NCBI GenBank assembly: GCA_024679065.1
Contig: JAGIQG010000012.1
Coordinates: forward strand, 54,622,001-54,686,000
DNA length: 64,000 nucleotides
Origin: Sphyrna mokarran
Lineage: Eukaryota
Direction: 5' to 3'
Position 1 is the stretch's first letter. The number at the start of each line of letters is the position of its first letter. This document shows positions 5,845 to 63,600 of the stretch, one piece after another. A program made the translations under genes and the position numbers. The notes below the pieces were generated by a model that made no database searches, was not told the origin of the DNA, and saw nothing but the letters and a program-made list of their open reading frames with translations.

Positions 5845-5900
5845 TCTTCGTCGTAGTGGAGAGAAAAAGATTCAGGGAGACAAAGTTCTACCAAATCCAT
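5845..5900 (-). CDS. ESRRG: First coding exon of estrogen-related receptor gamma (ERRgamma/NR3B3), long N-terminal isoform; the remaining exons lie beyond the left edge of the window
   Basis: Minus strand reads ATG GAT TTG GTA GAA CTT TGT CTC CCT GAA TCT TTT TCT CTC CAC TAC GAC GAA GA|GTAGGT = MDLVELCLPESFSLHYDE(E). This matches the human ESRRG N-terminus MDSVELCLPESFSLHYEEE as I recall it. 56 coding nt, phase-2 GT donor at 5844. Confidence 0.95.
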
Positions 5901-34072: not shown

Positions 34073-34367
34073 GGGCACAGTGGCTAGCACTGCTGCCTCA
34101 CAATCCCAGGGACCCAGGTTCGATTCCCGGCCTTGGGTCACTGTCTGTGCAGAGTTTGCACATTCTCCCCACGTCAGCCTAGATTTTCTCTGGGTGCTCT
34201 AATTTCCTCCCACAATCCGGAAGACGTGCTGGTTAGGTGCATTGGCTATGCTAAATTCTCCCTATGTGTACCAAACAAGCGCCGGGAGTGTGACAACGAG
34301 GGGATTTCACAGTAACTTATATTAATACGGTTAATGCAAACCTACTTGTGACAAATAACTGAACTTT
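34073..34367 (+). mobile_element. HE1-head SINE with alternative 3' tail
   Basis: GGCACAGTGGCTAGCACTGCTGCCTCAC A-box, GGTTCGATTCCC B-box, tail GGGATTTCACAGTAACTT...CCTACTTGTGAC. Confidence 0.87.
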
Positions 34368-35496
34368 ATTTTAATCCAATCCTCTCTGCAGCCGTCATTT
34401 AGAAGCTCGCGTAAAGTTGATGCTTTCCGTGTTACCAGTAAAGTGCATACACTGAGTTTTCTTGCTGTGTTCTCAGTTCATGCCAAGGGACTGCGAGGTG
34501 TTAAGTTCCACGGACTTTCTTTCTAGAAAATCCAAGGGTCTGTTGATATTTAGCCGCAGAGATCAAACACCACTCATGCAGGACATAGAGAGAAAATGAA
34601 AAGACATGAAGTGAACAGCGCCAGCAGACACACTGTTCAGTTTCAGTCAGACATAGCCCACTGCCACTGCCACCACCTTTCACAAAGCTAGACATCTCTT
34701 TATGTCAGAACAAATTGGGCATTCTTCAAATCATTTTTTTTTCTCTCTTCTCTCTCTTTCCCGATGACATAGGGATTCAAAGCAGGGAACAGAGCGCGGA
34801 AATGACTGTGAAAAGACAGGTCACTTCGCGGGGAAATCGCGGGATTGTTCATTACACCACAGCGATATCCTGAACTGGCAATGATCACTACTCAGCTGCG
34901 GAACAAGACAGTTTATTAAGCGGGCATGGCTGGTCATCTCACTGCCTAAAGGGATCACCATTTCACATGTGTAAATATCAAAAATAACTCCCCAACGTGA
35001 AATATCTAAGTGCCAGTGGCAGCGCACGGCACTATTAAATTTAAAAGGAAAAGCTCACATCTTCAGAAGGACCAGTGTACCCTCAGAATAAAAAAAAGAT
35101 TCTCTCACTGGGGAAGGGGGAGGGTAGAAATCCCGAGGGGGGATTTTCTACTTGCACAGCATACTGTCAGAACTCACATGTAACTGTAGCACTGATGAAA
35201 GAGCAGTCACTGTCACCAGCCACGCTAAAATACCCACTTGTTTTAACAGCCACATTTGCACCTGTGCATAGACCACAGATGTCCAATTGGTTTTCAACAA
35301 TCCAAGCTTTTTTTTTCAATACCCTTGCTCGTTTTAACAATATCTCCAAAATGTTTTTCAGATCCTTTGCTTAATTCAATAAGAATATGATTTTTACAAC
35401 TTATTTTTATGCCCTAAACATGATGGAATGTTCCCACAGTGCTTCGCCAGAGCATTATAAAACGAAGTGCAGCACTGAGCCACATCTGGAGATTTA

Positions 35497-42770: not shown

Positions 42771-43756
42771 TCAAGGGAGCAAGACATAGGACTGTCTGTG
42801 TCTAGAAAACTTACCATGAAGTCTTAGATGTAGGATTTCTAAATAAACAGTTTTGAGAAAAACTAAATTATGGCCATCTCTAAGTCACTCCTAGAATAAG
42901 TGAAAGCTTGTGAGCCAGTATATGTAGAGGGCAAAATGCCAAACCACGGTGGCTGTGCTGGAGGCTATTGTTTAAGAAAACAGACACAGATTGGGAATTG
43001 ACAACCTAGGAACAGCTCGACTTTGCAAACAAGAATAAAAATAGGACACATCTTGGTAGGGGACAGTGAATGAACCACTAATAGTGCCAGCAGCTACTGA
43101 ACAGCCACTACCCCTTTCAGAGCCCTTTAACACAGCAAAAGTCTGTAGCAAGGGCAGCGACAGAAACTCGGGAGGTGACAGTCTGTAAAGTACTGAAAGC
43201 TTCAGGCTCAGGGGACCAGACACACAAACAGTCAGTACGCTCTTATAGTAATTGGGGCTATAGCTGACAATGCCCTGGTGAGATTAGGAGTTGTAGAGAC
43301 CTTGACATCCTACAGCGAAATTTTCCAGCCGTTTAATATTACTTCAAGCCTGAAAATAATCTGGTCATTGAACAGGCAAGACACAATCAAAACTGCAAAA
43401 GGCTGGGTGAATCCATTGATTAATTTGATAATGATTTGTATCGCCTGCCCAGCAATTGCAGCTATGGAGCTTTAAAACATGATTCAATTCACAACTGCAT
43501 TGTAGTCAGCATGCTCGAGAAAGCATCATTGGAATTCTTGCAAATCAAGATGGATATAATGTTAGAGAAGGCCAAACAATCTGCAAGGCAGACAGAACTG
43601 CAAAAGCAGAATTAGAGTTAATTTCGAGGGGTCATTGAGGCTCAGAACCAGTCAATCCAGTATGTAGGTCCCAAGTCAGGGGTTCTGCCCATCTAAAAGC
43701 CTGCCAAAACCGACAAAAGAGAGAGAAGAGGGACTATCTTACAGTGATACAGATAT

Positions 43757-43878
43757 GGGCTGGAATTTTACCGCACTGCACGCCATGGGACTCAAAGCGA
43801 GCAAGGGGCAGACAATGGAAAGATCCATTGATCTCAGGTGGAATTTTACAGTTTCAGGAGAAGTGTAAAATTCTGCTC
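43757..43878. mobile_element. MITE-like element, same family
   Basis: GGGCTGGAATTTTACC...GTAAAATTCTGCTC inverted ends. Confidence 0.6.
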
Positions 43879-44464
43879 ATGGTGCCAAAAAGCATCATCG
43901 CTACAAGGGATGCCCTGAAGGATGAGTCAACTTGTTTCTCTGTGACAAGACAGAATATTTCATACAGTTCTAGAAAACTAAGGTACAGTTTAAAGAAATA
44001 AAGCTAGAAAAAGCTCCCAACAATTATGTGTGTAGGATATTGAAGATATAGCATTTCAATCAGGCAGTTTCTTAGAAGAAATCAGAAATCCTGATAAGCA
44101 GTTCTGGATGTAGAGCTGCAAGTCCAAGAATACAGAACAGAATTTAAATTGAAAACTGGAACTCTGGACTCAACCTTGTTGGACAAATTGGAATGGCTTC
44201 AGAAAGTAGAAATCCAGCCATTTAAAATGGAAACTGAATTGGGGGGGTGGGGGTGCTGTTGCATAGGCCACCCGTGGCGTGCAGTGCGATAAAATTCCAG
44301 CCCATATCTGTATCACTGTAAGATAGTCCCTCTTCTCTCTCTTTTGTCGAAAAACCGTAAACAGTACACTATAACCCTTAAGAATGGGAATAACAAAATA
44401 CAATGGGCTGAAGGTCCTTTTCTATACTGAGTGACCCTATGGCTCTTTAAATCTTACAGAACAG

Positions 44465-49257: not shown

Positions 49258-49612
49258 GGGTGGCATGGTAGCACAGTGGTTAGCACTGCTGCTTCACAGC
49301 TCCAGGGATCTGGGTTCGGTTCCCGGCTCGGGTCACTGTCTGTATGGAGTTTGCACATTCTCCTCATATCTGCATGGGTTTCCTCAGGGTGCTCCGGTTT
49401 CCTCCCACAGTCCAAAGGTGTGGGTTAGGTTGATTGGCCATGCTAAGAAATTGCCCCTCAGTGTCCAGGGATGCATAGGTTAGAGGGATTAATGGGTTTA
49501 ATATGTAGAGATATGGGGTTAGGGCTTGGGTGGGAATGTGTTCGGTGCAGACTCAATGGGCCAAAAGGCCTCTTCCTACACTGTAGGGTTCTATGGTTCT
49601 ACGATTCTATGA
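49258..49612 (+). mobile_element. HE1-type SINE, full length
   Basis: GGGTGGCATGGTAGCACAGTGGTTAGCACTGCTG...CTACACTGTAGGGTTCTATGGTTCTACGATTCTATG. Confidence 0.9.
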
Positions 49613-57796: not shown

Positions 57797-58435
57797 GGAA
57801 AGAAAGATTTGCATTTATATGGCACTGGGCACAATGACTGGACATCTCAAAGTGCTTGACAGCTAATGAAGTAGTTTTAAAGTGTGATCACCATTATAAT
57901 GTAGGAAACAGAGTGGCACAATGGTACAGTGGTTAGCACTGCTGCCTCACAGCGCCAGGGACCTGGGTTCAATTCCGGCCTTGGGTCACTGTCTGTGTGG
58001 AGTTTGCACATTCTCCACATATCTGGGTGGGTTTCCCCCGGTTTCCATTTCCCTCCACTCTCCAAAGGTGTGCACATTAGGTTGATTAGCCATGATAAAT
58101 TAGCCCTTAGTGTCAAAGGGATTAATGGGTTAAGTACAAGGGGTTAAAAGTATTGAGCCACTGTGGGATTGTTATCAGTGCAAGCTTGATGGGCCAAATG
58201 GCCTCCTTCTGCAGTGTAGGGATTCTACAAAACGCAGCAGCCAATGTGTGCACAGCAACTTCGCACAATTAATAATGTGCTAATGACCAGATAATCTGTT
58301 TTTGTGATGTTGAATGAAGGATAAACACTGGTCAGGACATTGAAGATAACTCTTTTGCTCTTCTTCAAGAAAGTGCCATGGGATCTATTATATCTACCCA
58401 AGCAGGCAGATGGGGCCACAGTTTAAGGTCTCAGA
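57797..58435 (-). mobile_element. Deu-domain SINE (SacSINE1/AmnSINE1-like), interrupted by an HE1 SINE
   Basis: AGTGCCATGGGATCT.TT.TATCTACC..AG..GGCAGATGGGGCC..AGTTTAA.GTCTCA Deu-domain text; GAAAGAAAGATTTGCATTTATAT tail. Confidence 0.7.
57911..58227 (+). mobile_element. HE1-type SINE nested in the Deu-SINE
   Basis: GTGGTTAGCACTGCTGCCTCACAGCGCCAGGGAC head to GTAGGGATTCTA tail. Confidence 0.9.
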
Positions 58436-58970
58436 CTAAAGGTACAAAGTAAATGCAATGTCCATTTTATCATAATGCAGAGCTTCTTTCTAAATGTAAG
58501 AGTATTTGAAGAGCTGGATCAAATGGCTGCTAGCTGGCTTAATGACAGGTAGATTAATTGATTAAAAATCATTTAACTGCTGGAAAATGAATGAGCTATA
58601 ATTAATCACTTAAAACACCAGTAGATTTCTGCAACAAAGAGCACTTCAGAACTTCAGAGCGGAAAAAATGAAAAAAAAAGTCTGAAATGACAGGCTAAAA
58701 TCCCAATGTGAGCTCAGGAAGCATAGTAGAACTTATATATGTGAGAAGTTACAAGATCTTAAAATAGTGAAGCCATATATTTTCCCTGAGTGAACAAACA
58801 GGTGATTATTCTCCGCAATACAATAAAGAACTTGCATGTCCTTCCATACAGAAAAGGCTGAGGTGATTCTTAAAGTAGTCATGATGTAGAGATGCCGGCG
58901 TTGGACTGGGGTAAACTCAGTAAAGTTTTACAACACCAATTTTAAATCCAACCAATTTATTTGATAGTAA

Positions 58971-59011
58971 ATCCGCGAGCTTTCGACGCTATGCGCCTTC
59001 GTCAGGCAAAT
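58971..59011 (-). ncRNA. Minimal type I hammerhead ribozyme motif (minus-strand copy)
   Basis: Exact reverse complement of 59055-59095. Confidence 0.72.
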
Positions 59012-59054
59012 CCACACATGTGGATATGAGTGCCTCTGCAGATCAGAACACTGC

Positions 59055-59095
59055 ATTTGCCTGACGAAGGCGCATAGCGTCGAAAGCTCGCGGAT
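59055..59095 (+). ncRNA. Minimal type I hammerhead ribozyme motif
   Basis: AUUUGC-CUGACGA-A-GGCGC(AUA)GCGUC-GAA-AGCU-C-GCGGAU: conserved CUGANGA and GAAA boxes, 5-bp stem II, palindromic AGCU stem III, UH site (predicted cut after C59089), stem I AUUUGC/GCGGAU with two G-U pairs. Confidence 0.75.
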
Positions 59096-59649
59096 TTACT
59101 ATCAAATAAATTGGTTGGATTTAAAATTGGAGTTGTAAAACTTTACTGTGATTCTTAAAACCAGGGGTAACCCATTCATCCTATCCTGTTATTACATTTG
59201 ACACAAAGAAGGAAAGGTGGCCTTAAAATCTTAAAGGTAAAACTTTCAGCCAAGTTACATGTATGTTACACCAAGGCAGGAATTCCAACTAGTATGCTGG
59301 CGGGAATAAAATATCAAGCAACAACATCCAATACAGATATTCTTCCTACCCAACTTGTGTACTGCCACAAATCTGAGGCAGTGCTTTGCACAGTTTATAA
59401 TTTAATATTATTTGCTGGAAACATTTTGCAACACCCAGCAGAAACAGATTTCTTCCATACATCAGGCTTAGATCAAATAACAGTAAATCATACCATGCTA
59501 CGATTATCCTAATAGCAAGTTGCTTTCCTCATCTCCATTTTTATCTTTTGATTAAACTGTGATTGTGTCCTTAGTATTATCGAGGTCTCAGTTACATCTG
59601 GGGTAATCTGAGGGAAGGTTGGTAAATGAACCCTACAACCATCATTTTG

Positions 59650-62600
59650 GATACTATAAAAGGTACCCAAGGTATCGATGGTTGTTAATCAAAGAAGGTT
59701 TCAAAATATCATGATATAAAGGCAGTTGATTGTGATGTAGAATTGGTTTGGGTTGAAATCATGAATAGCGGGGGAAAAAGACAAGGATGGATGTAGTCTG
59801 TAGACCCCCAAAATATGACCTCTCACGATGTCGGAGTATTAATGAGGAAATATCGAGGGCATGTTTGAAGAGAATTGCAATTATCATGACAGATCTTAAT
59901 CTGGATATCGATTAGACAAATCAAACCGGCAAGTATTTGTGGAGTGCATCAGAGTTTGCTTTTGAGAGCAGTACATTGTGGAACTGACCGAGAACAAGCT
60001 ATTTTAGATTTGGTTTTGTGTAATGAAGAAGGATTAATAAGGGAACTTGTGTTTAAAAGATCCCCTAGTGGGTACTAGCACAATATGATAGAATTCCAAA
60101 TAGAGTGTGAAGATAAACATCATAGGTCCATAACCAGTGACTTCAACTTAAATAAGAGCAATTATAATGGTATGAGGAAGGAATTGTTTAAGCTGAACTG
60201 GGTAAAGAAGCTAAGAAAGAGGTCCATAGATGAGCAGTAGCAGATATTCAGGTAGTTGGTCCAAAATGCTTAGCAGGAGTTTATCCCAATTAAAAAGAGG
60301 AATTCGACAAGAGGCAAATCCATGGTTAACAAAGGAGATCAAGGATAATGTTAAAATCAAAAGCAGGATATACAAAGTGGCAAGAATAGTAGTAGACCAG
60401 AGAACAGGGTCCAGCAACAAAGGACTAAGAAGCTCATAAGAAGAAAGAAAATTAATTTTAGAGAAAACTTGCATACAACAGAAATACAAACAGTAAGAGT
60501 TTTGATGGATCTATAAATAGAAAGTGGACAGCTAAGGTAAACGTGGAGCCTCTACTGAATGAGGCGTGCAAATTAATAATAGCAAAGAAATGGAGGATAC
60601 ACTTAATAAATTTTCTGTATCGGTCTCTACTGTGGAAGACATTGCAAATATCCCTAGGATATCAGATGGGCTGATTTCAAATAACATGGTAGAATTTACA
60701 AAAATACCAATTATAAAGGATAGAGTATTAGAGAAACACAAAGGGCTAAAGGTAGACAAGTCACCAGGACCTGATGAACTCCAACTGAGGCTTTAGTGGA
60801 AGTCGCTATGAAGATAATGAACCCATTGGTTGAAATTTTTCGTAACTCGTTAAATTCCAGGACAGCACCAGAAAATTGGAGAACAGTCAATGTGATACCC
60901 TTGTTCAAAAAGGGAGAAAGGCAAAAAGCAGGAACTGAGAGGCCAGTTAGTTTAATGTTTATTGTTTTTGCGAGATGCTAGAGTCAATAACAAAGAGGAA
61001 AAGCTACTCATTAAGGAAAGCTGAATATAATCAAACCTAGTCAACATAGTTTTACAAAAGGTAAGTCATGTTCAACAAATCTGTAGAATTGGTTTGGGTT
61101 GAAATTATGAATAATAGGAGAAGGAAGACAAGGGTGGGTGTAGTCTGTAGACGCCCAAAATATGACTTCTCATGATGTCAGAATATTAATGAGGAAATTT
61201 CGAGGGCATGTTTGAAGAGAACATTATTATGACAGATCTTAATCTGGATATTGATTGGACAAATCAAACGGTCAAGGATTTGTGGAGTGCATCTGAGATT
61301 GCTTTCGAATTTGCTCAAATTGTTTGAGGTTGCAACAAGGAGAGTAGATAGAAAGGAACCTGTAGATGTAGTGTAGTTAGATTTTCAAAAGGCATTTGAC
61401 AGGCTGGTCAAAGAGGCTAGTGCACAAAAAAACCCCATAGAATTGGAGGAAGTGTGTTAGCATGGATTGAAAACTGGCTGTTATATAGAAAACAAAGATT
61501 TGGAATAAATGGGTCCTCTTCAGAGTGGAAATATGTAACTAGGGATCAGTTCTTGGCCCATAATTGTTCATTATTTACATTAATGATCTGGAGGAAGAAA
61601 CAGAATGTAAGGTTTCCAAATTTGTCGATGATATGAAGATAGCTGGAAGGACATGTTGTGATGAGGATATTGTGATTTTGCAATGGGATACAGATAGATT
61701 GGGTGGCTAGGTGAAAACCTGGCAAACAGAGTTTAAATGTGGGGAAGTGTAAGGTCATGCCCTTTGGTACGAGGAATCAAAAGGCAGATTACTATCTAAA
61801 TGGAGACAGGCAGCAGGTGAATGAAATACAGAGAGATCTAAGTGTTCTGGTGCATGAATTACAAAAATCTAGCAGGCAGGTTCAACAAGAAGACAAATAG
61901 CATTTTGGCCTTTATGACAAAGAGATTGAAGTTGAAAAATAGGGGCATTTTGTTGAAATTGAACAAGGTGTTGATGAGGCTTCACCTGGAATACTGTGTG
62001 CTGTTTTGGACAGTTTTTTTTTACAGTTTTAGACAGTAACAGGTTATGATGAGTGGGCAATAAGTGGAGCTAAGTCCATGAAAACATCAGCCATGATCTT
62101 ATTGAATGGCAGAACATGCTTGAGGGGCCAGATGGCCTAGTCCTGCTCCTAGTTCTTATGTTCTATGTCCCCTTATCTAAAAAAAATGCTAACATTGGAA
62201 GCAGTCCAAAGTAGATTCATCAAGCGAATTCCTGGGATGAGGAACTGTCTAGTCTATATATATCTATATGTTTTGGAGTTTAGAAGAGTGAGGGGTGTCA
62301 TTATTCAAACACATAAGATCCTGATTGGGCTTGACAGGGTAGATGGTGAGATGTTTTCACTAGCGGAAGAGTCTCGAACAGAGGGACAGACCCACAAAGC
62401 AAAGGACCAGTCATTTAAAACTGAGATACGTCAAAATTTCTTCTTGAAGAAGGTGGTGAATCTCTGGAGTTCTCTGTACCAAAAGAATGGTGGAGGCGGA
62501 ATCATTTGATGTATTTAAAGTGGAAGTGGATAAATTTTTGACAGATTGAGGAATATAGGGCTATGGGGAAATGGCACAGCAAAGGAGTTGAGGCCGGCAT

Positions 62601-63139: not shown

Positions 63140-63600
63140 TTAAGAACAGAAAGAATAGGAGCAGGAGTAGACCATACGGCCCTCAAGTCTGCTCCGCCAT
63201 ACAATAAGATCATGGTTGATCTGATGTTGGCTTCAACTCCACTTTGCTGCCTGTTCCCCATAATCCCCAACTCCCCTCCAGTTCCATAATGAAACTCAGC
63301 TTTGAATATCTCGAATGACTCAACTTCCAGAACTCTCGAAGTTGAAAATTAGGACCATTAGAGAGAAGAAACGTTCCCCCACCCCCACTACGCCAACTTT
63401 GTCTTAAGTAGCTGATTCCTTATCCTAAAACTACGCTATCTTCTTTTCAATTTTCCCACAAAGCAAATCTACCAGCATCTACCCTGTCAAGCCACTTCAG
63501 AATCTCTCATATTTCATTCTTCTAAACTTCAGTGAGTCTAATGTGCTCAATGTTTTCATCCCAGGAATCAACCTAGTGAACCTTCTCTGCACCTCTTCAT
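63140..63600 (-). mobile_element. CR1 LINE 3' end
   Basis: AAGAATAGGAGCAGGAGTAGACCAT.CGGCCCTCAAGTCTGCTCCGCCAT.CAATAAGATCATGG ... CCAGGAATCAACCTAGTGAACCTTCTCTGCAC. Confidence 0.85.

Follow-up and report, generated by a model that had tools for sequence, protein, structure and literature searches.

The analyzed window is a stretch of 64 kb of DNA. On its minus strand, at about 5845-5900, there is a short coding exon whose reading fits, in short motifs, the N-terminus of ESRRG and which would be the first coding exon of that gene. An insert of 273 bp (58875-59147) lies about 53 kb upstream of this exon, placed between two plus-strand copies of a target-site duplication (TSD), GTGATTCTTAAA, at 58863-58874 and 59148-59159. 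In the 64-kb window, with both strands considered, this 12-mer occurs only at these two positions; at any single given position, an exact match would arise by chance with a probability of 1.4e-7. Since G59148 could be read either as the end of an arm of the insert or as the start of the TSD, the duplication is 11 or 12 bp long. With this margin, the insertion of about 273 bp with a TSD proposed in the initial annotation was confirmed.

The ratio of observed to expected CpG was 1.16 in the element, compared to 0.28 in 4 kb of the flanking sequence. For the only open frame of 40 residues, a protein search (a weak one) returned no longer relative. A blastn search of the element against the window detected no second copy (the best other match had an E-value of 0.18). 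A scan for bacterial promoters and terminators was empty, a result irrelevant to a vertebrate. Motifs of the nuclear-receptor DNA-binding and ligand-binding domains as well as GIY-YIG motifs were not found in the six frames of the window.

Several other repeats were observed in the window. The halves of an inverted repeat of 79 bp (43711-43789 and 44271-44349) are 97% complementary and separated by 481 nt; this might be an inverted-repeat element of young age. A direct repeat of 230 bp (59736-59965 and 61082-61308), with copies that are 87% identical and lie 1.35 kb from each other, might be LTR-like or the result of a local duplication. Many copies of old dispersed SINE-like repeats of about 300 bp, mostly 65-85% alike, were spread across 9434-58227, for example at 49260-49593, 57913-58227 and 34081-34368. 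An open frame at 62153-62509 resembles the C-terminal end of ORF2 in CR1-type LINEs; an inverted partial copy of this frame was seen near 63143-63598, with a run of N nearby.

The insert is built of two inverted arms, the left one at 58918-59011 (minus strand) and the right one at 59055-59148 (plus strand). The arms are identical at 93 of 94 positions, the sole mismatch being 58935/59131, and each arm carries six CpGs, in agreement with the earlier description. Outside the left arm there is a tail of 43 nt (58875-58917, minus strand), unpaired with the other arm and present on this side only; we read it as a 3' extension of the element family. The two halves meet at 59010-59025 (no strand assigned), in an imperfect palindrome of 16 bp, followed by an unpaired centre at 59025-59054 (plus strand). 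At the junction, the sequence of the left unit is that of the right unit minus 31 nt, skipped at a microhomology of 2 nt. The whole centre and the tail both measure 43 nt, which is probably a coincidence. As the ESRRG exon lies on the minus strand, the left, tail-bearing arm has the ESRRG-sense orientation, and so the statement that one of two hammerhead copies is ESRRG-sense was supported by the match to that exon.

On both strands we observed the elements of a hammerhead core in the same order: CUGACGA, an unpaired A, a stem II of 5 bp, GAAA, GC and UC. The cores start at 59061 on the plus strand (59061-59089, in the right arm) and at 59005 on the minus strand (in the left arm), 56 nt apart. 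Stem II is closed by a G-C pair, and a palindromic AGCU stands where helix III would be. With G-U pairs included, stem I has 6 bp on the plus strand and 10 bp on the minus strand; for the ESRRG-sense hammerhead, the junction palindrome at 59010-59025 adds to the predicted stem I, which grows from 6 to 10 bp. The predicted cut falls after C59089 on the plus strand and between 58977 and 58976 on the minus strand.

A descriptor of the minimal hammerhead built from the traits given in PMC4209133 matched exactly these two sites in the window and had no matches in 200 sequences of 64 kb resampled with a first-order Markov model. All the sequence traits of the minimal hammerhead ribozyme (min-HHR) were present: CUGANGA, GAAA, a UH site, G10.1-C11.1, an extra nucleotide between 9 and 10.1, a palindromic 15.2-16.2, and stems I and II. 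Thus, the presence of a hammerhead core in each arm, one per strand, was corroborated by the motif and by the descriptor. In the covariance-model search suggested for this claim, the Rfam hammerhead models gave no match at E<=10 in either of the two regions scanned (58600-59400 and 58955-59026). A motif that lacks helix III would be expected to escape these models. The same database did return microRNA matches that were far below the gathering score; they reflect the hairpin and were rejected. None of the six in-element substitutions listed for other contigs (40 of 58 rows) struck the core, and two of the six were in loop II and stem II.

The history of the site was assessed by comparison of positions 58620-59400, at 82% likeness, with contigs of four (X1, X2, X12 and X15) of 24 sequencing runs. 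In run X2 (organism B), record 25 aligned to 58620-58862 at record positions 322-562 and to 59148-59400 at positions 563-827, so that 58862 was joined directly to 59148 (record 562/563). This is an empty site with a single copy of the TSD; the flanks differed from the window by 44 letters over about 500 positions. Record 16 of run X12 (organism E), a contig with a depth of 3.5, had the same empty-site pattern, with 59148-59400 aligned from record position 53 and an equally deep left flank. In run X1 (organism A) the flank contigs continued into the element unbroken and the flanks had no differences; this run is possibly the source sample and hence not independent. The flanks of the insertion were not covered in run X15, which may be RNA.

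Thus, the empty site that the initial annotation advised to look for was found in two other organisms, and the insertion is young and, being missing from organisms B and E, lineage-specific. The youth claimed for it earlier was borne out by this finding along with the retention of CpGs and the near identity of the arms. As the arms of a palindrome can be homogenised, the arm identity and the CpGs provide no date. At 59205, about 45 nt beyond the downstream end of the insertion, runs X2 and X12 had 13 extra bases, and so a loss of 13 bp in the lineage of the window is probable.

The element belongs to a very abundant family, which may already carry a name in Repbase or Dfam. The numbers of matching contigs were 36,893 in X1, 1,333 in X15, 11,811 in X2 and 8,376 in X12, and the summed depth in X1 was about 1e6 on the insert versus 14-21 on the flanks (a ratio that is not a copy number). 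In all four runs, loose ends with diverse flanks started at 58875-58882 (13 of 24 listed rows, 529 in total); three such rows of X1 accounted for 1,418 contigs with loose ends at the tail. The recurrence of these ends in four runs identifies the tail end as the terminus of the family. For the tail-less end, 24 of the 529 loose-end rows gave no confirmation that it recurs in other copies.

We also observed that the depth of coverage varied strongly within the central part of the insert. In X1, the bin 59025-59051 was as deep as the adjoining arm bin (1.04e6 vs 1.06e6), and therefore the centre consists for the most part of normal family sequence from further upstream, belonging to the right unit; in X2 and X12 the depth of this bin was near zero. 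The junction bin 58998-59024, on the other hand, had a depth of 7.0e4 in X1, about 7% of the 1.04e6 observed in the next bin; in X15 the fraction was 3%. Among the contigs listed, none ran across the own junction of this copy, and the uniqueness of its centre is judged from the low junction depth rather than from a direct count. Joints from arm to arm numbered 98 in total, and the best 15 of them differed in position and in filler sequence, with none dominant. The deepest one, from 58971 to 59083, had a depth of 244, roughly 12-17 times the flank depth and minute in comparison with the depth of the family. The fillers at the joints were diverse among 12 of 134 rows.

Palindromic copies with differing centres suggest that the palindrome was made anew at each insertion and was not copied as a unit. 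This bears directly on the initial interpretation of the insert as a dedicated palindromic mini-retroelement, a non-autonomous element whose whole 273-nt unit would be reinserted by a protein of a Penelope-like element (PLE) acting in trans. The clean TSD and the lack of coding capacity would suit such an element. Published work also indicates that mobilisation in trans requires no more than the pLTR sequences (PMC3846280) and that non-autonomous PLE derivatives exist (PMC8557442; bioRxiv 10.64898/2026.07.22.740005). Moreover, the depth of the 58971-59083 joint leaves room for some centres common to several copies. The low depth of the junction bin relative to its neighbour in X1 and X15 and the differences among the other joints argue against movement as a unit, and a duplex of 94 bp would, according to the folding models, bury the ribozyme along with the inner start region for reverse transcription (RT). 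With centres and fillers varying among the best 15 of 98 joints, the claim of unit movement was not sustained, and we consider this explanation improbable.

Folding predictions addressed the state of the ribozymes in a transcript of the locus. In either direction of transcription the antisense arm is made first, and thus a 94-bp duplex is predicted to mask the ribozyme. The whole insert folded at -183 kcal/mol (z-score of -21.7). For stem II, the predicted probability stayed below 1e-15 both in the complete RNA and in chains of five different lengths. The masking in both read-through directions that had been proposed from the sequence was thus reproduced by the predictions. The left arm folded alone would form stems I and II with a probability of 0.38-0.55. 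In the in silico monomer fold of the right arm with its upstream sequence the hammerhead was not adopted. A cofold of two left-arm monomers produced strand-swapped stems I and II in a model that does not score catalysis. Most likely, the two hammerheads are inert passengers of the pLTR, silenced by the modelled mutual pairing.

An RNA duplex of 94 bp is a plausible substrate of ADAR or Dicer, and the action of either enzyme on a read-through RNA is possible. Given this property and the ESRRG-sense orientation of one arm, which in isolation is predicted to form both stems, one may ask if the insert was co-opted as a regulatory RNA of ESRRG, either as a cleaving ribozyme or as a source of double-stranded RNA. 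We regard such co-option as very unlikely. The insertion is lineage-specific, absent in B and E, and is one among very many copies; its ribozyme would be masked in the predicted read-through RNA; and minimal hammerheads are described as either inactive as monomers or dependent on the PLE protein (PMC4209133, PMC11167929). For min-HHRs, the first of these sources reports no cleavage as monomers and low cleavage as dimers; the cleavage of hammerhead dimers observed by Lunse et al. is relayed in a review (PMC6765202).

The architecture of the insert is that of the PLEs with an endonuclease domain (EN+; Penelope/Poseidon, Neptune). With these elements it shares the head-to-head inverted 3' ends, the hammerhead in the pLTR, the palindrome at the junction, the one-sided tail, the short TSD and an empty site with one TSD copy. 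An inverted 5'-truncated copy beside the pLTR and a tail of 30-40 bp at one end are described as typical of PLEs (PMC8557442). In rotifers, PLEs have an inverted pLTR, a TSD of 8-10 bp and a tail on one pLTR, with the empty site checked (PMC3846280). Inverted pLTRs and short extensions are treated as routine peculiarities of single copies (PMC8969392). Pairs of min-HHRs on opposite strands lie 100-700 bp apart (PMC4209133); compared to the min-HHRs of that work, the helix II of the insert has 5 bp and the cores are closer. The differences from the published PLE examples are the lack of an ORF and the minimal size of 273 bp; the tail, at 43 nt, is slightly longer than the 30-40 described, and the TSD, at 11-12 bp, exceeds the 8-10 bp of the rotifer examples. 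The PLE-type origin put forward initially was therefore upheld by the head-to-head arms, the one-sided tail, the TSD with the empty site and the pLTR hammerhead.

Two other classes of elements were considered. The definition of a non-LTR retrozyme calls for two or more units in head-to-tail tandem, the hammerheads all lying on one strand (bioRxiv 10.64898/2026.07.22.740005). The insert is like retrozymes in being non-coding, related to a pLTR and equipped with a type I hammerhead, and retrozymes are reported in the one chondrichthyan sampled. Unlike retrozymes, the insert has its units head-to-head rather than in tandem, and each strand carries a single hammerhead; with no long direct repeat present in 58000-60000, this assignment was rejected. 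A MITE-like DNA transposon or a fold-back element with long terminal inverted repeats would account for the long inverted arms and the TSD. Its termini would not be expected to be asymmetric, with a tail of 43 nt on one side only, or to be accompanied by an intact hammerhead in each arm. Among the copies, the arm lengths vary from the centre outward, as 5' truncation predicts, and we give this possibility hardly any weight.

For a wider context, a whale shark preprint describes expansion of Penelope-like elements in introns. The open-access literature on hammerheads in shark PLEs yielded one review (PMC6155905) in which "shark" denotes the shape of a ribozyme. No partner ORF with RT and GIY-YIG domains was linked to the family by the protein search, which was weak, or by scans of sequence collections, which returned chance matches only. 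Loci matching a 20-22 nt pattern of the tail (none in metagenomes, three viral and eight prokaryotic) were dismissed as chance matches; none of the 11 extended beyond 25 nt.

Considered together, the empty site, the TSD, the tail, the abundance of the family, the heterogeneous centres, the motif fit and the predicted masking make it very probable that an EN+ PLE family inserted here once, recently and head to head, with 5' truncation, and that the insert is a dead-end product. Each arm would then be a 5'-truncated 3' end of a pLTR with a minimal type I hammerhead, ending with the tail on the left and without the tail on the right. An experimental parallel is the protein of the Poseidon element of the lizard Anolis carolinensis (PAc), a predicted dimer that in vitro cleaves and extends both target strands and begins RT at two sites, the distance between them setting the tail (PMC11167929). 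Like PAc, the insert has its hammerhead shortly upstream of two 3' ends separated by the tail, as well as an A+T-rich target; unlike PAc, it lacks a start codon at stem II.

By analogy, a PLE RT/GIY-YIG protein, probably a dimer, would nick both target strands 11-12 nt apart. Each nicked 3' end would prime reverse transcription on a PLE-type RNA, with the RNA 3' ends facing outward; one RT start would be at the tail end and the other 43 nt further in. Both cDNAs would stop just upstream of the hammerhead and would be joined head to head via the 16-bp junction palindrome. The template could be either a full-length PLE RNA or a short non-coding derivative of the pLTR.

A variant of this scheme, which leaves the PLE identity unchanged, would derive the second arm from the first cDNA itself, which either folded back and primed its own synthesis or switched templates. 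The imperfect palindrome of 16 bp at the junction and the skip of 31 nt at a 2-nt microhomology are consistent with this variant, and palindromes at inverted junctions have been interpreted as traces of self-priming (PMC3846280). On the other hand, the part missing from one arm is precisely the tail, in keeping with two separate RT start sites, and extension of both strands by a PLE protein has been observed in vitro (PMC11167929). We consider a fold-back origin of the second arm a real possibility, though not the likelier one.

The positions of the joints in other family copies showed a pattern of their own. In eight of the best 15 joints (98 in total), both arms ended 3 to 8 nt downstream of the predicted cut, at 58969-58972 and 59093-59098. 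Joints of this kind comprised 24 of 32 contigs in X1 and all of the contigs in X2 (16) and X12 (eight), with none listed in X15. Two of the 5-nt fillers, GTGAG and CTCAC, are reverse complements of each other and, if they represent a variant stem I strand, would extend one arm exactly to the cut. From the positions of the joints and these fillers, we tentatively suggest that the pLTR hammerhead might cleave in vivo, that the cleaved RNA might be a common template of insertion, and that the palindrome centres might mark the cut.

The same clustering may have come from RT that stalled where stem I begins, since a peak at +5 to +9 is predicted in this case as well, or may be an alignment bias caused by subfamily divergence; since the family depth drops upstream of 58971, joints further in are harder to see. 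In the open-access literature we found no report of a cleaved-template footprint in PLE genomic copies. For PAc, hammerhead cleavage was assisted by the protein and dispensable in vitro, and no RNA-seq ends were seen at the cut (PMC11167929); in the present family, by contrast, other copies have arms that end 3-8 nt past the predicted cut, on its downstream side. The copy in the window appears to stem from an uncleaved template RNA, since both hammerhead cores were copied, and in this respect it is like the PAc insertions in vitro.

Just beyond the right TSD copy, at 59160-59165, the minus strand has the motif CCTGGT, seen in the sequence and offering a weak lead. Inspection by eye of the consensus rows of tail-end flanks detected a C-C-T-G-G-T-type patch in 10 of 13, at about 9-17 nt outside the element end, with an agreement of only 0.32-0.34 (13 of 24 listed loose-end rows, 529 in total). 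It is possible that a CCTGG-type motif reflects a target preference of the endonuclease.

The locus itself is of little importance, being one of very many PLE stumps that could serve at most as a lineage marker or as an undisturbed record of a two-ended insertion. If in vivo cleavage with cleaved templates were true, it would provide genomic evidence on the role of PLE hammerheads, treated as a standing question in PMC8557442, PMC4209133 and PMC11167929. At the level of the family, thousands of young, short, junction-bearing copies make up a natural dataset on PLE integration, which could inform the choice between twin priming and fold-back, the target preference and the cleavage of the hammerhead in vivo.
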